A stretch of DNA of 64,000 bases. Origin: an uncultured delta proteobacterium (GTDB lineage Bacteria; Myxococcota_A; UBA9160; SMWR01). Location of the stretch: the NCBI GenBank assembly GCA_963832165.1, contig CAWHTE010000001.1, forward strand, positions 608,001 through 672,000, given 5' to 3'. This document shows, piece by piece, positions 8,462 through 54,101 of this stretch. The notes beneath the pieces were generated by a model. That model worked only from the letters and a program-made list of their open reading frames with translations. It did no database searches and had not been told where the DNA came from. The translations under genes were made by a program, and so were the position numbers. Every line of letters begins with the position of its first letter. Within the stretch, counting starts at the first letter, position 1.

Positions 8462-9613
8462 TCAGTCCGTCGCCGACACCACGCAGTCGAGGATGCGCTC
8501 GGCCTCGGCGCGTTGCTGCTCGGCGGCGATCGACTCGCCGGCCTCGAGCCGGGCCGCAAATCGGAAGAATGGCACGAACCCGTCCTCGTCCTGGCAACGC
8601 GCGCGGACCGCGAAGCGCGGGCTGCGCGCGGCTCGCTGCGCCCACCCGTGGCGCACCGCGGCCCAGAACGGCGACGTCGCCTCCCAGTAGGCGTCCGCGG
8701 CCGCGAAGTCGAAGCTCTCGAGCCGCTCGTAGCGATCGACGCCGATCTCGCGTGCGAGGCGCCGCGTCTCGCCCGCCTGATGGCCTTCGCTCGCCTTCGG
8801 CTCGCTGCCCGAAGCTTGCGCGAGCACGAGCTTCTGGTTGTCCTGCTCGTGGACCCAGCCCGTCGGCAGAATCGTGTGCCGGTTGCGTCCCGCGAGCACC
8901 TGATAGTCGCTGCGCACGGTGTGCTCGCGGCGGGGCAGCGGGCGCCAGGCCTCACCGCCCTCCCAGATCGATGCCTCGGCGCTGTGAGTCCAACGACCGA
9001 GCGATCCGTAGCGCGGCGCGTCGTCGACCTGGTACACGGTCTGCGACCAGGCGCCGCGGCGCGCGTCGCGCGGAACGGATCGGGTCTCGAAGCGCTCGTT
9101 CCCCGCGAACACGAGCACGTTGCTGGGCTCGTAGCGCCAGTCCTGACGCCAGTGCTTCTGTACCAGCGGACCGTGCGTTTGCCCGGACTCGTCGATCACG
9201 AACATCACGAGGATGTGCTGAAGGCTCACGAAGTCGGCGCGGTCCTCGATCACGTAGATGCGCTCGGTTCCCCACGATCGGTACGGGCGCGCCGGCGTCG
9301 CGCCGGACGTGAACAGGATCGTCTCCAGGAAGTCGAAGGACGCGCGGTAGTCGCCGGCCATGGCAAGGATCGCCGCGCGGTCGCGCTCGCGCGCGGAGAG
9401 CCCCGGCGCATGGAGCCGCTGCCACGCTTCGGACGGGACGCTCGCGAGCGTCACCTCCGCGCCGTGCGTCGTTCCGCCGCGCGGCTCCATCGGAACTCCG
9501 ACGAACGGCCACGCGAACACATAGGGCCGCCGCTCCGGAGCGGCGGTCGCACAGCCGACTCCGATCGCGACGACCGCGGCGAGCAAGAGCGTCGCGTACC
9601 TGCGCCAGGTCAT
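8462..9613 (-). CDS. DUF6607-like exported protein (probable lipoprotein)
   Basis: Lipobox-like IGVGC; DRAAILAMAGDYRASFDFLET, KHWRQDWRYE, WRPLPRRE, GWVHEQDN. Confidence 0.7.
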   Translation of the reverse strand: MTWRRYATLLLAAVVAIGVGCATAAPERRPYVFAWPFVGVPMEPRGGTTHGAEVTLASVPSEAWQRLHAPGLSARERDRAAILAMAGDYRASFDFLETILFTSGATPARPYRSWGTERIYVIEDRADFVSLQHILVMFVIDESGQTHGPLVQKHWRQDWRYEPSNVLVFAGNERFETRSVPRDARRGAWSQTVYQVDDAPRYGSLGRWTHSAEASIWEGGEAWRPLPRREHTVRSDYQVLAGRNRHTILPTGWVHEQDNQKLVLAQASGSEPKASEGHQAGETRRLAREIGVDRYERLESFDFAAADAYWEATSPFWAAVRHGWAQRAARSPRFAVRARCQDEDGFVPFFRFAARLEAGESIAAEQQRAEAERILDCVVSATD

Positions 9614-47137: not shown

Positions 47138-48621
47138 GTGAGAGTCGAGATCGGGATCTGTCTCGCGGTCCTGGCGTTCATCGCCGGGCTGATCCACGCG
47201 CCGGGCGCGCGTTCCGATTTCAGCTAGGACGACTATGACTTCGTGCTGAACAACACGGCGATCCGGTACCCGAACAGCGCGCTCGCCTCCTTCGCGCAGC
47301 CGTTCCCGCCGCACCAGCCCGACCGCGGCCTCTACCGCCCGGTCACGAATCTCAGCTATGCGCTGGACCATCAGCTCTTCCAGCTCGACGCGCGCGGCTT
47401 CCACTGGACCAACGTCGCGCTCTACGTCGTCGTCGTGTGGCTCGTGTTCGCCCTCGCGCGCTGGCACGATTCCTCTGCGGGCTTCGCGTTCGCAGCCGCG
47501 GCTCTGTTCGCGGCCCATCCCGTCCACTGCGAGGCCGTCGACAGCGTGACCGGGCGCAGCGAGCTTCTCGCAGCGGCCTTCGCGCTCCTCTCGATCCTGG
47601 CCTTCGCCGCCGCAATGCCGCGCGGCGGTACGGCTCGCTCGGTAAGCGCACGCGCGATCTGGGTCGTGCTTTCGGCTCTCGCGTACGGCGCGGCCGCCTT
47701 TTCGAAGGAGGTCGGTGCGTTCGTGCCGGCCGTGCTGGCCGTCTGCTTCCTGTGTTTCGGCCGGGTGCCCGGAGAGAGCGCCGCGAGCTGGGTCCGGCGC
47801 GGTGCGGTGTGGCTCGCGCCCTGCCTCGCGGTGGGGCTCGCGTACCTTCTGGCGAGGTGGAACGCGTTGGGCGGGCTCGCGCCCGACGCCGGCATACTCG
47901 ACTCGCAGAGCACCGCGTTTCGGATCCACACGATCGGCATGTCGTGGATCCAGTACCTGCGACTGCTCGTCGCGCCGACGACGCTCCACGTCGACTACTA
48001 CTGGTGGCCAGTTCTTCCAGAAGCCGCGCGAGACGCTCGTCTGGGCGCTCGCCGGCTGCGCACTGCTCGCGATCACGCTCGCTGCGCTCGCCGCGTTGGT
48101 CCTGCGCGAGCTTCGCAGCTCCCGGGGCCACGGCGCCGGGCAGATCGCCTTGTGCGCTCTCTCGTTCGTGGTCTTCCTGTTCCCGGTCATGCACGTCCTG
48201 CCCACGATCGGCTGGATGTCCGAGCGCTATCTCTTCCTGCCCTCGATCGGGTTCTGCGTGCTCGTCGCGCTCGCCGTTCGCGAGGGAATGCGCCGCTGGG
48301 TTCCTTCGCCCCGCGCGCGGCTCGCGGCGTCGAGCATCGGGCTCGCGGTTGCCGTCGGGGCCGGCGGTTGGCGAAGCCATCAGCGCGCGCTCGAGTGGCG
48401 CGACGAGCAGAAGCTCTGGCAGGTCGAGGACGCCGCGCTGCCGAACGACGCTCGCATCCTCTCGAGTCTCTCCCACGCCTACGCGAAACGCGGGCGGATC
48501 GGCGTGGCCTGGGACGCCCTCGAGCGCGCTCGCGGCGCCGAGCCGCGCATGGACGCGCCTCGATCGCATGCTCGATTCGATCGAGCGCCTGCTGCGCGAC
48601 GCGCGCGAGCGATCGCGCTAG
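47138..48621 (+). pseudogene. TMTC/GT-C-like membrane glycosyltransferase with TPR tail; in-frame TAG and two frameshifts
   Basis: FS*DD...N, YRPVT.LSY.LD, FHWTN, FAAHPVH.EAV..V.GR, SKE, SERYLFLPS, W.DE..LW; TAG 47225-47227, shifts near 48000 and 48550. Confidence 0.7.
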
Positions 48622-49265
48622 GGGACGATCGACGCGAGCAGGGCCTGCATCTGGCCGATCGGCCAGGACAGGATCGGTGCGCCGAGCCACACGATCGCGA
48701 TCAGCGTTCCCGCGAGCACCCAGTCTCCGCCGCGCAGGAACGCGCGCCAGGCCGGCTCGAGGCGCGCGGGCAGCCACGCCTCGAGCACGCGGCTGCCGTC
48801 GAGCGGCGGCACGGGCAGCGCGTTCAGGATCGCGAGCGAGAAATTCAGCACCGCGATCGTCTCGAGCAGCGCGCGCACGGCGCTTCCCGGCTCGACCGTC
48901 GCGGGCGCGCCCGCGACGAGTGCGAAGAGGACCGAGACCGCGGCGAGCGTGAGCGCGAGGTTCGAGGCGGGGCCGGCGGCTGCCGTGATCGCGAGGCCCG
49001 TGCGCATCGACACGCCGCGGTGGAACCGCGTGGGGTTGATCGGCACGGGCTTCGCCCATCCGAATGGAACGCCCAGCAGCGGCAGGAGCAGCGTGCCGAC
49101 GGGATCGATGTGCGCGAGCGGATCGAGCGTCATGCGGCCCAGGCGTGCGGCCGTGTCGTCGCCGAGTCGCCACGCCGACCACGCGTGCGCCCACTCGTGC
49201 ACCGCGAGCGAGAGCCACAGCGCGATCAGCCAGACCAGGCGCGACGCGAGATCTGCTTCGCTCAC
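48618..49265 (-). CDS. Site-2 protease (peptidase M50)
   Basis: HEWAH, GRMTLDPLAHIDP, GWAKPVP, AAAGPASN, NALPVPPLDG. Confidence 0.93.
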   Translation of the reverse strand: MSEADLASRLVWLIALWLSLAVHEWAHAWSAWRLGDDTAARLGRMTLDPLAHIDPVGTLLLPLLGVPFGWAKPVPINPTRFHRGVSMRTGLAITAAAGPASNLALTLAAVSVLFALVAGAPATVEPGSAVRALLETIAVLNFSLAILNALPVPPLDGSRVLEAWLPARLEPAWRAFLRGGDWVLAGTLIAIVWLGAPILSWPIGQMQALLASIVP

Positions 49266-49277
49266 GAGCGCGAGCTC

Positions 49278-50618
49278 CTAACGCCTCGCCTGCAGCGCGT
49301 GGAGGTCGGGGCGCAGATCAGCGGGCGCGATCGGTCGATGGTCTTCGCTCACCTTCGGCTCGCTGCGCGACTCGGTTCCGTCCAGCGCCTCGAGGGTCTT
49401 GATCGAGCGCTTGAGCACGATCGTCTCGGCGCCGTCGTCGCTGCTGCGCACCTTCAAGAACGCGGCGTCCGCCCACACGAGCTCGCCCTCGACGATCGTG
49501 CCCTCGTCGAGCGTGAGTCGCACGCGCGCGCGACCGGTCGGCTGGCTGAGCTGGGTGGTCGACTCGATCAGCAATGCATCGATGTGATCGAAGCGCCGGG
49601 TGGCGTGGCTGCGCGGATCGAGCGCGCGCTCGAAGTCGGTGCGCTCGATGCGCGGATCCGCGTCGGCGGCGCGGCTGCGCCGCACTGCGAGGATCCCGGC
49701 CTCGTTGACGAGGCCCTCGAGCTCGGCGCCGCTCATGCCCTCGGTGCGCGAGGCGATGTCCTCCAGCGACACATCGGCCGCGAGCGGCATGGTCGCGGCG
49801 TGGATCGCCAGCACCTCGCGCCGCGCATCGGCGCAGAGCGGCGGCACGGCGATGCGCCGGTCGAAGCGACCCGGGCGCAAGAGCGCAGCGTCGAGTACGT
49901 CACTGCGGTTGGTCGCCGCGATCACGACCACGCGCGCGCCGCGCTCGAAGCCGTCGAGCGAGACGAGCAGCTGGTTCAGCGTGTGCTCGCGCTCGTCGTT
50001 CACGAGCCCGATCCCCGAGCCGCGGCGACGGCCGATCGCGTCGAGCTCGTCGATGAACAGGATCGCCGGCGCGTGCTTTGCCGCGAGCTCGAAGGTGTCG
50101 CGCATGCGCGAGGCGCCGACTCCCACGAACATCTCCACGAACTCGGAGGCCGAGACGGACAGGAAGTGCGCGCGCGTCTCGCCCGCGACGGCGCGCGCGA
50201 GCAGCGTCTTGCCGCAGCCGGGCGGTCCCTCGAGCAGCACGCCGCGCGGCAGCCGCACGCCGGCGCGCTCCCAGACTTCCGGGTTCTTCAGGAAGTCGAT
50301 CAGGTCGGCGAGCTGCGCCTTCGCCTCTTCGCAGCCGCCGACACTCGCGAACGTCACGCCGGGCGATTCCGTGACCAGTCGCGCACGGCTCTTGCGCAGC
50401 TCGAGTGCGTTCGCGGTGCCGCCGCCCGCCTTGCGCAGCACCCAGACCAGCACGCCGAGCCCGATTGCGATCGGCACCAGCACCCAGATCGCGCGCACGA
50501 GCGGGCTCCCGGGGTCGCTGCCCTCGCCCCCTCCGGAGAGGAGCTGGAACCCGATCAGCAGCGCGATCACGAGCGCGGTCCACACCGCGAGCGTGCGCAG
50601 CTTGCTTCCGGACTGCAT
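49278..50618 (-). CDS. Membrane-anchored FtsH-like AAA+ ATPase without M41 protease domain; C-terminal Sm/Hfq-like domain
   Basis: 2 TM; GPPGCGKT, EMFVGVG pore loop, FIDELD, ATNR..LD.ALLRPGRFDR; no HEXXH; tail VRLTLDEGTIVEGELVWADAAFLKV...IVLKRSIKTL. Confidence 0.85.
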   Translation of the reverse strand: MQSGSKLRTLAVWTALVIALLIGFQLLSGGGEGSDPGSPLVRAIWVLVPIAIGLGVLVWVLRKAGGGTANALELRKSRARLVTESPGVTFASVGGCEEAKAQLADLIDFLKNPEVWERAGVRLPRGVLLEGPPGCGKTLLARAVAGETRAHFLSVSASEFVEMFVGVGASRMRDTFELAAKHAPAILFIDELDAIGRRRGSGIGLVNDEREHTLNQLLVSLDGFERGARVVVIAATNRSDVLDAALLRPGRFDRRIAVPPLCADARREVLAIHAATMPLAADVSLEDIASRTEGMSGAELEGLVNEAGILAVRRSRAADADPRIERTDFERALDPRSHATRRFDHIDALLIESTTQLSQPTGRARVRLTLDEGTIVEGELVWADAAFLKVRSSDDGAETIVLKRSIKTLEALDGTESRSEPKVSEDHRPIAPADLRPDLHALQARR

Positions 50619-50728
50619 GCCTGCCTCCTCGGGGGCCCGGAGCTTCATCGGTCGATCGCGGAGCGAGCTGGATCACAGCGCTACAGCGCCGTGCTCCGAT
50701 ACAATCCCGCGCCGTGAGAGGACCCCGC

Positions 50729-53700
50729 GTGTCGACCGCCGCGATCGGCGCAATCGCGTTCCTGGCGGCCGCAATCGGTTTCGCCGCGCCCGCAGGTGCC
50801 CAGGGGTTGGCGCTGCCGGGGGCCGAACCCGTCCCCGCTGCCGAGCAGAATCAGCTCGACGACCTGCGCGCGGAGGCCGCGCGCTTCGAGGCGCACGCGT
50901 CGGAGTGGAAGGCGAAGGGCGCCGAGTACGAAGACGGGGCGCGCCGCGCACCCGCGGAGCTCGCGGCGATCGAGGCCGAGATCGTGCGCGGCAAGCGAGC
51001 GCTGCCCGCAGAGGTCCCCGCGGACGCTCCGCTCGACCAGCTCGAGGTGCTCGAGATCGGTGCGCAGCAGGACGCGGCGCTCGCGCAGCGCGAGCAGAGC
51101 GAGTTCGAGACCGAGCGCGAGCGCCTCGCACTGCGCCGCCGCGAGCTGCCCGCGGTGCTCGCGGAAGCCAAGAAGCGGCTCGCAGAATCCCCCGCACCCG
51201 CGCCAGCGGTCCAGCAGGAAGGCGCGGCGGTCGACGCAGTACGGCAGCGCGTCGCCGAGCAGCGCCGCGCTGCGTTCGAGAGCGAGGTGCGCGCGCTCGA
51301 GCAGGAGCTCGCGACGCACGAGGTGCGCGCGCGGCTGATCGAAGCGAAGGCCGCGCGCGCGGAGCAGCGCGCGCAGCAGCAGCAGGCCGGTCTGGCCGCG
51401 ATCCAGCGCGTGATCTCCGAGCGGCGACAGGCCGAGGCGAGGAGCGCGATCGAGAGCGCGCTCGACTCGATCGACGCCGCCGCGACACTGGCTCCCGAAG
51501 CGCGCGACGAAGTGCGCCGGCTCGCCGAGCAGAACGCCGAGCTCGCGCGCGGGCGCACGGGCGAGCAGGGTGTGATCCAGTCGATCGACAGCGTCTCGCG
51601 CAAGCTCGCGAGCGTCAATCGCCGACTCACCGAGGTCGACGCCGATCTCGAACGGCTGTCGCACAAGCTCGCCGCAGATGGACTCACGCGCTCGCTCGGG
51701 ATGGTGCTGCTCAAGGCGCGCTCACAGGCGCCCGACGTCGGCAAGACGCGGCGCTTCATGCGGATCCGCCAGCAGGAGATCGCGGCCGTGCAGGTGCGCG
51801 TGGAAGAGCTGCGCGATCAGCTCTCCAAGTTCAAGAACATCGACTCCGCGGTCGCGACTGCGATCAAGAGCTTCCCGGGTGGGGTCGGGGAGGCCGACCG
51901 CCCGCAGCTCGAGAATCTGCTGCGCGACCTGCTCGAGACCCGGCGCGAGCACCTCGGCGCACTGCTGCGCGACTACGAGCAGTACTTCCAGGTGCTCGTC
52001 GACTACGACACGAGCCAGCAGCAGCTGGTCCAGAAGACGGAAGACCTGCTGCACTTCATCGATCAGCGCATCCTCTGGGTGCCTAGCAGCGGGGCGGTGC
52101 AGGCGAAGACGTTCCGCGACGGGGTCGATGCGCTGAGCTGGCTCGGAGAGCCCCTCCACTGGATCCGCCTGGGACGCGCGCTGATCGATGCGTTCTTCGC
52201 GGCGCCGCTCTTGAACGTCGCCGCCGCGCTGGTGTTCGCGGGAGCGTTCGCGCTGCGCCCGGCGATGCGGCGCCGATTGCACGAGGTGGCCGAGCAGGCG
52301 CGCCGGCCGACGCAGATCTCCATCTTCCCGACGCTCCAGGCGCTCGCGATCTCGCTCGTGCTGGCGCCGTGGGGCGCGGCACTGATCGCCTATCTGGGCT
52401 GGCGCGTATCGCTCTCGGCCGAAGCGACGCCGTTCGTGCGCAGCGTGGCGCAGGGACTGATCGGAGCGGCCGTCGTCTGGCTCTCGCTCGAGATCCCCCG
52501 CCAGGTGGTGCGCCGCGACGGCGTCGCCGAGGCGCACTTCGCGTGGCCCGCCGACGCGGTGGCATCGCTTCATCGTCAGATTCGCTGGCTGATCACGATC
52601 GCGGTGCCGCTCGCGTTCGTGATTCAGGTATTCGAGATGCGCGGCGTGGTCGCGTGGCGCGAGTCGGTGGGCCGCGCTGCGCTGATCGCGCTGCTCGGCG
52701 TGGTGGCGGTGTTCACGCATCGCGTGGTGCGCGAAGAGGGCGCGATCCCCGCAATTCTGCGCAGCTCCACGCGGACCGGAATGCGCCCCTGGGTCGGGCG
52801 CGCCGTCCACTTTGCGGCGGTCGTGTTTCCGATCGGACTCGCCGCCGCGGCCGCGCGCGGCTACAGCTGGACGGCCCTCCAGCTCGCGGCTCGCTATCAC
52901 CTGACGCTCGTCTTCCTGTTCCTTTTGCTCGCGAGCGCTGCACCTCGCGCTGCGCTGGAGCCTGCTCGCGCACCGCCGGCTGGCCTTCGACCAGTGGCGC
53001 GCCGCGCGCGAAGCCGAGCGCGCGGAAGCCGCCAGCGCGGAAGAGACGGGCGAGCGCACCGTGGTGCCCGAGCCCGAGCTCGACCTCGGCGACGTGGATG
53101 CGCAGACGCGTCGTCTGGTCTCCACCTCTGCGGTGGTCGCGATGCTGCTCGGGCTCTGGGTGCTCTGGGCCGACTTCGTGCCGGCGCTCCGCGTGCTCGA
53201 CGAGGTGGAGCTCTGGACCACCACCCAGTCGCAGGTGGTCGAGATCGCCGCGCCGGACGGCACTCGCTCGTCCCACACCGAGCAGCGGCTGGTGCCGATC
53301 ACGCTCGCGAGCGTGCTCGCGGCCGCCGTGGTCGCGTTCATGACGATCGCCGTGGCGCGCAATCTCGCCGGACTGCTCGAGGTCTCGCTGTTCCGGCGCT
53401 GGGAGCCCGGACCCGGCGAGCGCTATGCGATCACTTCGATCGCGCGCTATGCGGTCAGCCTGCTCGGCGGCGTGCTCGCGTTCAACGCGATTGGAGTGGG
53501 CTGGTCGAAAGTCCAGTGGCTCGTGGCTGCGGTGGGTCTCGGGCTCGGCTTCGGCCTCCAGGAGATCTTCGCGAATTTCGTCTCGGGGCTGATCATCCTG
53601 TTCGAGCGGCCGATTCGCGTCGGCGACACGGTGACCGTGGGCACCACGAGCGGGACCGTGGCTCGGATCCGGATCCGCGCCACCTGGATCACCCAGTTCG

Positions 53701-54101
53701 ACCGCAAGGAGCTCGTCGTGCCGAACAAGGAGTTCGTCACGAGCCAGCTCGTGAACTGGACGCTCTCGGACACCGTGCTGCGCGTCGACATCCCCGTGAG
53801 CATCGCCTACGGCGCGGATGTGGACGCCGCGCTGAGCGAGCTGATCGCGCTGGCGCAGGCGAACGAGCACGTGCTCGAAGATCCGAAGCCGCGCGCGCTG
53901 TTCCTGGGCTTCGGCGCGAACACGATGAACCTCGAGCTGCGCGTCTACAGCCCCGACGTCGAGCACACGCTGCCGATCCGACACGATCTGCACCTGGCGA
54001 TCGAGCGCGCGTTCAGCGCCGCGGGGATTCCATTCACTCCGCCCCCGGCGCCGGCGGCGCCTCCGGCTCCCCCCGCGCCGAGTCCGAAGCCGGCGCGCTG
54101 A
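50729..54101 (+). CDS. Large MscS-family mechanosensitive channel (MscK/KefA-like), frameshift near 52935
   Basis: Signal peptide, long coiled coil, ILWVPS, multiple TMs, GLGFGLQEIFANFVSGLIILFERPIRVGD, VPNKEF. Confidence 0.88.

Follow-up and report, generated by a model that had tools for sequence, protein, structure and literature searches.

An FtsH-derived ATPase gene coupled to a site-2 protease gene

In an uncultured delta proteobacterium, a stretch of 64,000 nucleotides of contig CAWHTE010000001.1 (positions 608,001 to 672,000; hereafter the window) carries on its minus strand a gene for an FtsH-derived AAA+ ATPase that ends in an Hfq-like Sm domain (AAA-Sm), followed by a gene for a small M50 intramembrane zinc protease of the site-2 protease (S2P) class. 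The AAA-Sm/M50 pair is real and conserved. An initial annotation of the window had described two transmembrane (TM) helices, an intact FtsH-type AAA module (Walker A and B, FVG pore loop, and second region of homology), the lack of an HEXXH/M41 domain, an Sm/Hfq-like C-terminal segment, and an M50 gene starting 12 nucleotides past the ATPase stop codon, and each of these elements was recovered in the present analysis. The features of the locus are given below; conservation is counted over 79 distinct tails that were obtained from 85 pooled full-length relatives, with the Walker A motif as selection rule.

49278..50618, minus strand: AAA-Sm gene (FtsH-derived AAA+ ATPase with C-terminal Hfq-like Sm domain), 446 residues, ATG at 50618
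50538..50594, minus strand: TM helix 1 (residues 9-27)
50436..50492, minus strand: TM helix 2 (residues 43-61)
50205..50228, minus strand: Walker A, GPPGCGKT (residues 131-138), in 79/79 relatives (selection rule)
50121..50129, minus strand: pore loop 1, FVG (residues 164-166), first residue aromatic in 74/79 relatives
50046..50063, minus strand: Walker B, ILFIDE (residues 186-191), in 79/79 relatives
49857..49916, minus strand: second region of homology (SRH) with arginine fingers (residues 235-254), in 78/79 relatives
49383..49592, minus strand: predicted Hfq-related Sm domain (residues ~343-412), helix and five-stranded bent sheet
49281..49382, minus strand: low-confidence C-terminal tail (residues 413-446), with a DxW-type motif at its end in 35/79 relatives and shortened in others
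49336..49370, no strand: 35-bp interspersed REP-like repeat, in frame within the AAA-Sm tail
49266..49277, minus strand: spacer of 12 nucleotides between the AAA-Sm TAG and the M50 GTG start
48618..49265, minus strand: gene for the M50 (site-2) intramembrane zinc protease, a small protein of 215 residues without PDZ domain, four hydrophobic segments, GTG start
49185..49199, minus strand: M50 zinc motif HEWAH (residues 23-27); H23, E24, and H27 invariant in 24/24 alignment rows
48795..48824, minus strand: M50 third-ligand motif NALPVPPLDG (residues 148-157), in all 23 distinct linked M50s listed

The AAA-Sm start codon is preceded by GAGGAGG, with an alternative ATG at 50648, and a promoter and terminator scan returned 0 sites. 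Across the pair, between 48550 and 50600, the GC3 (G+C content at third codon positions) phase stays the same; it shifts within both flanking genes, where the assembly has frame shifts. Logan short contigs, which derive from other sequencing runs, cover the Sm region with 4 differences in 151 nucleotides and no gap, and the junction of AAA-Sm stop and M50 start with 0 differences over 160 nucleotides. Because the GC3 phase is constant, the contigs are ungapped, and all relatives end alike, an M41 domain hidden by an indel or assembly error, which the initial annotation had named as a way in which it could be wrong, is ruled out. In-frame read-through from AAA-Sm into M50 was considered as well: here the M50 lies in frame behind a single TAG, but in most loci it is in another frame, and the idea was dropped. 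The REP-like repeat occurs in 77 copies at up to 4 mismatches genome-wide, including another window copy at 8778-8812, and its insertion explains about 12 additional residues of this AAA-Sm copy that are visible in the homologue alignment. Many soil contigs have this repeat alone in common with the gene.

The ATPase module and the loss of M41

AAA-Sm is a membrane-anchored, intact FtsH-type AAA+ module without an M41/HExxH domain. The protein matches the FtsH model TIGR01241 at an E-value of 2.7e-117 over only profile positions 109-399 of 598, scoring 393 bits where the cut-off is 600, and it carries GPPGCGKT, FVG, ILFIDE, and ATNR..LD.ALLRPGRFD. Its top Foldseek matches are FtsH, and its identity to the three canonical FtsHs of the genome is 48-53%. 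M41 models, including PF01434, gave no match to the protein; HExxH occurs in 0 of the 79 full-length relatives, nearly all of which retain Walker B, SRH, and the aromatic pore loop; and a search with the tail brought up 31 further proteins, each of which has an AAA domain and lacks M41. Judging from its motifs, AAA-Sm probably forms a hexamer with ATPase activity. With FtsH proper (TIGR01241; AAA+ plus MEROPS M41; E. coli FtsH; PDB 2ce7, 2dhr) it shares the two TM helices and the FtsH-type AAA with FVG and SRH, and many relatives retain the periplasmic FtsH_ext domain, the loop between TM1 and TM2 being only about 15 residues long here. It differs from FtsH in having an Sm domain where FtsH has M41 and in its coupled downstream M50 gene. 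The relatives carry the annotation 'cell division protease FtsH', which conceals AAA-Sm proteins in the databases.

All six carrier genomes checked have canonical ftsH genes in addition to AAA-Sm (three in this genome and two or three in each of five others). One of the three canonical ftsH genes (G000:C3:45623-46187) has its M41 in two frames, likely through an assembly frame shift. AAA-Sm might hence be imagined as joining canonical FtsH complexes by way of its TM and AAA parts, as a protease-dead partner subunit or sink in the manner of plastid FtsHi, and as bringing the M50 to them as an adaptor. The plastid FtsHi and Ycf2-FtsHi systems likewise consist of FtsH-derived ATPases without protease activity, and FtsHi proteins build mixed complexes (PMC9020784). 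B. subtilis YqgP serves as an FtsH adaptor (PMC7231995), and two proteins in which the same Sm domain follows an FtsH-like anchor (P0132 and P0146, see below) have N-termini close to the canonical acidobacterial FtsH P0149. However, the AAA domains of AAA-Sm proteins constitute a separate, diverged group: in a quick tree, whose root is unplaced as the single outgroup sits on a long branch, a branch with support of 99 separates 38 of them from 12 canonical FtsHs. Moreover, the pairing of FtsH subunits depends on the protease domain (PMC9020784), which is lost here. Plastid FtsHi1, 2, 4, and 5 lose the HEXXH of the protease domain, and the sections consulted of the same paper mention neither an Sm domain nor an M50 partner for any FtsHi. 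Co-assembly with canonical FtsH is thus considered quite unlikely. A reading of the pair as anti-phage defence (IetA/IteA) was rejected, with 107 bits against a cut-off of 510 and no PADLOC match for the M50.

An Hfq-type Sm domain in the position of the protease

Residues 364-409 of AAA-Sm match PF21979 (Hfq_1) at an E-value of 2.5e-5 and 24.7-25.0 bits, which is under the gathering cut-off of 27, and the tail matches NF047718 (cyanobacterial Hfq-related) at 3e-4. PF21979 is matched by 10/10 tails of alignment A2, its cut-off is exceeded by the relatives P0131 and P0104, and a precomputed match exists for 3/32 homologues. The AlphaFold2 model of the tail, with a predicted local distance difference test score (pLDDT) of 83.6, consists of a helix and five strands. 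Every listed Foldseek row for this model is an Hfq (best E 2.5e-3, none at E 0.001), and Hfq entries fill 7 of the 8 top VIA-align rows (Z 6.9-7.3, root-mean-square deviation 2.0-4.7, 56-68 aligned residues). A profile of the tails matches three PDB entries, each of them an Sm protein. Anabaena Hfq (3hfn) is matched best, with E 0.0014, and Caulobacter Hfq and an LSM-domain protein follow with E 0.04 each. Aligned with hhalign to the single E. coli Hfq sequence, the profile reached an uninformative probability of 3.5%, and an ESM Atlas search with the tail gave no usable match. At the level of the predicted structure, residues ~343-412 are confirmed as an Hfq-type Sm fold, and the non-Sm or disordered tail that the initial annotation had allowed for was not encountered.

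By sequence similarity the domain appears to be of the cyanobacterial Hfq type (PF21979, NF047718; PDB 3hfn, 3hfo), which is the best sequence match of the tail and shares its G-x-x-x-W-x-D strand. G378 and W382 are invariant in the family, and K389, K403, and D347 are nearly so; the G378/W382/K389 pattern is common to standalone acidobacterial Hfq-related proteins, and the G and W also occur in Anabaena Hfq. What sets the AAA-Sm domain apart from cyanobacterial Hfq is a conserved N-terminal helix of its own (DxxLxES..Q), besides its staying under the Pfam cut-off in this protein.

In a sample of 351 Acidobacteriota genomes, the tail profile finds matches in 202, a tally that takes in three unpublished genomes (G448, G473, and G576; one G448 row is also in the residue-comparison group, and nothing else presented here draws on these genomes). 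Of 30 loci fetched from this sample, 29 encode a small standalone protein and the remaining one is the seed AAA-Sm; all five of the standalone proteins that were scanned exceed the PF21979 cut-off. The standalone protein is basic and keeps H57 in 66%. Loci L034-L063 of Acidobacteriota (e.g., L063:1239-1679) hold this standalone PF21979 gene, mostly in single copy; its product has an NRKLIRP-type motif at the N-terminus and a strand of the form G-x-x-E-W-Y-D.

The Hfq fold is the starting point of one of two functional readings in the initial annotation, namely a membrane-tethered ATPase that binds or remodels RNA or ribonucleoproteins (RNPs) through an Hfq-like ring, with the M50 as regulator or partner. 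The tails were compared with E. coli Hfq at positions that we take to be its RNA contacts, with the roles assumed for them in brackets: Q8, F39, F42, K56, and H57 (proximal), Y25, I30, and K31 (distal), and R16, R17, and R19 (rim). Owing to a 5-residue insertion, the register of the helix is less sure in this alignment than that of the strands. In the 79 tails, Q8 is replaced by D (98%), Y25 by T (62%), and F39 by A (82%), and K31, F42, and H57 are variable; only K56 is kept (K/R in 99%). The mean net charge of the Sm tails is -2.4 (-4 in this protein) against +2. The RNA reading is weak because the domain is of the cyanobacterial type, most of the proximal, distal, and rim contact positions are replaced, and the domain is net acidic. 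Cyanobacterial Hfq, the closest class, is described as lacking RNA-binding residues, with very low RNA affinity, and as regulating motility (PMC10989914), FVG pore loops serve to grip polypeptides (PMC9020784), and the sole conserved neighbour of AAA-Sm is a protease. What speaks for RNA, apart from the fold itself, is the persistence of basic residues at the K56 equivalent, K389 (97%), and R367 (77%), the reach of the tail profile into the basic, H57-containing standalone proteins, and the genome content: PF17209 (canonical Hfq) has no match in this genome, which is 89% complete and in which no other Hfq was found. On the residues compared, RNA binding by the tail is unlikely, and an ATPase acting on RNA or RNPs is decidedly improbable.

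A function of the Sm domain on an ATPase instead of RNA has a parallel in cyanobacteria, where Hfq co-precipitates with the PilB ATPase and affects secretion (PMC8092324). Both proteins share the loss of RNA-contact residues and the association with a hexameric membrane ATPase, but cyanobacterial Hfq is standalone and binds PilB in trans, whereas the AAA-Sm domain is fused to its FtsH-type motor.

The M50 partner and its linkage to AAA-Sm

The M50 open reading frame matches PF02163 at an E-value of 2.6e-12, and its best solved relative is M. jannaschii S2P. It has HExxH on a TM helix together with NxxPxxxxDG; a domain-library scan found no PDZ domain, and the RseP model TIGR00054 scores 18.5 bits against a cut-off of 147.55. 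These motifs point to an intact intramembrane protease that is presumably active. The protein resembles the small PDZ-less M50/S2P proteins (PF02163; M. jannaschii S2P, PDB 3b4r), which we take to be the YwhC-like class, in both motifs, in its membrane-embedded nature, and in the lack of PDZ. Some of its close relatives are fused to TPR domains, and three of 11 long M50 relatives (P0167, P0168, and P0171) to the class I tRNA-synthetase domain PF00579, whereas the present subgroup is tied to the AAA-Sm gene.

Of 25 distinct genome loci, 23 have an M50 gene 3' of AAA-Sm on the same strand, at a distance of about -6 to +66 nucleotides, as do both of the metagenome loci (25/27 in all), and the absence of such linkage among homologues, which would have spoken against the initial annotation, was not observed. 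Of the two metagenome loci, one comprises AAA-Sm and M50 and the other a cut tail and M50 only. The zinc motifs are present in all linked M50s where the sequence is complete. False tail matches (L009, L010, L031, L071-L073, P0135, and P0137), P0133 (frame break), the duplicate loci L012, L013, and L015, and re-fetches are excluded from the counts, and as related loci are not independent, no P value is attached to the linkage. As a control, the fetched flanks of 15 canonical ftsH loci contained M50 or Sm in 0/15 cases. Among 41 related genomes, only the 4 with AAA-Sm hold a close member of this M50 group, which is partly so by construction; the best M50 match in the 37 others has an E-value of 1.4e-29. 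The M50s from Myxococcota-, Acidobacteria-, and Planctomycetota-labelled records unite in one clade with support of 100. Over 24 pairs, the Spearman distance correlation with M50 is 0.43 for AAA, 0.33 for Sm, and 0.41 for TM, which is taken to show co-inheritance only and is no evidence of contact.

The pair is present in records labelled Myxococcota, Acidobacteria, and Planctomycetota, with its closest relative in a Myxococcota record of the same genus. A sample of 401 genomes from the own phylum yielded 17 true matches (18 in total, one false), and in the top matches of the Acidobacteriota sample and in 301 Planctomycetota-sample genomes, AAA-Sm was found only in the seed genome. This patchy spread suggests an accessory role in stress or quality control. 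Together with the non-independence of related loci, it could also be taken to mean that the two genes were inherited side by side by accident and that the ATPase gene is a decaying ftsH copy. This is largely refuted, leaving only a very slim chance of it, because the pair persists with intact motifs in several phyla and in neighbourhoods that are otherwise unrelated, while the ATPases share 45-80% identity.

No third conserved neighbour gene recurs over 26 wider loci. This bears on the suggestion of a motor that drives translocation through, or the assembly of, an envelope structure, similar to Ycf2-FtsHi or PilB-Hfq, with the M50 as processing peptidase. The action of cyanobacterial Hfq on a pilus ATPase and on secretion (PMC8092324) is in line with such a motor, as are the protease-less FtsH-like motors that are thought to move proteins in plastids (PMC9020784), but the 26 loci show no recurrent gene for a channel, a pilus, or secretion in the vicinity of the pair, and we regard an envelope motor as very improbable.

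Proteins with anchor and Sm domain but no ATPase

In eight database proteins (P0106, P0131, P0147, P0132, P0146, P0122, P0124, and P0104), an FtsH-like anchor, of at least two types, leads straight into the same Sm domain, with no AAA domain. Two TM helices are found in five of them, and P0106 matches FtsH_ext. They are singletons from short contigs, as established for five of them, and scans for such loci in 101 and 14 further genomes gave only matches to FtsH N-termini. The ATPase-less proteins may be real adaptors or decay products, and the mechanism proposed below does not account for them.

Their existence is compatible with AAA-Sm itself being the substrate of the M50, whereby a cut in the anchor would free a soluble ATPase-Sm or a bare Sm ring as regulator (regulated intramembrane proteolysis, RIP). 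The one-to-one translational coupling without a third gene fits such a role, as does the freely variable periplasmic domain of AAA-Sm, which ranges from a full FtsH_ext to the ~15-residue loop. Yet RseP-type S2Ps usually cut single-pass N-in substrates (PMC12067869), while here it would be the second of two helices, and the membrane-facing motor features (pore loop and linker) are strongly conserved. Such a cleavage of AAA-Sm by the M50 is unlikely.

Proposed mechanism

AAA-Sm is not FtsH, as it has no M41, and not canonical Hfq, as the RNA residues are lost, and its partner is not RseP, as it has no PDZ. By analogy, the pair would be most like a system of an intramembrane protease plus an AAA+ ATPase that is made of different parts. 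In B. subtilis YqgP-FtsH (PMC7231995) and eukaryotic RHBDL4-p97 (PMC9437926), an AAA motor and an intramembrane protease act on membrane proteins; these are rhomboid serine proteases with a degrading FtsH or the proteasome, whereas here an M50 and a protease-less motor form a dedicated gene pair. We infer, with about an even chance of being right, that AAA-Sm and the M50 work together as an ATP-driven module for the cleavage and extraction of membrane proteins, consisting of a protease-less extractase and an M50, with a collar of Sm domains replacing the M41 ring.

The second functional reading of the initial annotation, a 'split FtsH' in which the unfoldase feeds the M50, is favoured in so far as the protease is seen as the partner of the motor, but it does not hold in its literal form. 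FtsH substrates enter at the gap that separates the ATPase ring from the membrane and exit into the protease disc beneath (PMC7949044, PMC9020784). Since the Sm domain occupies this exit position and the M50 active site lies within the membrane, the motor could not thread substrates into the M50 as FtsH does into M41, and the M50 would act before or during pulling. S2P substrates bind in an extended form and need helix destabilization (PMC12067869), and since there is no threading route, the motor would rather unwind or shift TM substrates and/or extract the products. The membrane-anchored AAA-Sm hexamer would grip a cytoplasmic segment of a membrane substrate by its FVG loops; pulling would unwind or shift a TM helix so that the M50 can cut, and/or the motor would extract the cut fragments. 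Beneath the ATPase ring, six Sm domains may form a rigid collar as structural stand-in for the M41 disc and could, at the same time, present a surface on which proteins dock, much like cyanobacterial Hfq on the PilB ATPase. Products would be released or passed to other proteases, the latter being conceivable because the host keeps canonical FtsH.

A bolder version of this module, which would make it a membrane machine of a new class, is tentative and rather doubtful: the Hfq-like ring, a co-opted RNA-chaperone fold, would dock specific clients for the protease-less FtsH motor, and pulling would gate the M50 cut, resulting in ATP-controlled RIP without a site-1 protease, with the ATPase-less anchor-plus-Sm proteins as adaptors or inhibitors.

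Several observations weigh against a joint module or parts of it. The case for it is drawn from gene context and analogy. Two of the 27 loci (L007 and L008) lack an M50 neighbour; an unlinked M50 of the same clade is present in the genome of L008 (G423), and an M50 search of the genome of L007 (G422), which may be incomplete, gave no match at all. The linked M50s by themselves do not form a supported clade (support 8, with two unlinked M50s grouping with them), and no AAA-M50 fusion was seen among 111 tail matches or the 11 long M50 relatives, which is a weak test. As for the Sm domain, the VIA-align Z-score is middling (7.3, with a biotin-ligase domain reaching 6.6), the position equivalent to Hfq Y55 is often proline (59%), and the conserved basic residues mentioned above persist. 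Sm domains occur in non-RNA proteins such as MscS and need not make ring contacts (PMC3710371). As the ATPase-less proteins show, the Sm domain can be retained in the absence of the motor, and a solely structural role as collar does not explain this.

If the proposal is true, a bacterial AAA+ motor is paired with a site-2 protease; a literature search found no description of the AAA-Sm and M50 architecture, although supplementary tables could hold a mention. It would raise the question of whether motor force can take the place of site-1 cleavage, by which the action of S2P is normally licensed. It would also be the second case, after cyanobacterial Hfq-PilB, of an Hfq fold serving a hexameric ATPase and not RNA, here fixed by fusion.

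Neighbouring genes

On the plus strand, a gene for a multi-TM membrane protein (window ~47243-48621) converges on the M50 stop and shows a GC3 phase shift near 47950. Neither of its two pieces matched Pfam, and by eye it may resemble TMTC-type glycosyltransferases. In two genomes of the same genus (L001:1113-3980 and L002:3-2182), the pair lies just downstream of a shared cluster that is missing at the locus in the window and that we take, by eye, to be poly-gamma-glutamate-like. Divergent from the pair in the window is an MscK-like mechanosensitive channel gene (~50730-54101, plus strand) with a frame shift near 52900, and an MscK-like gene also adjoins the region of the pair in L001.

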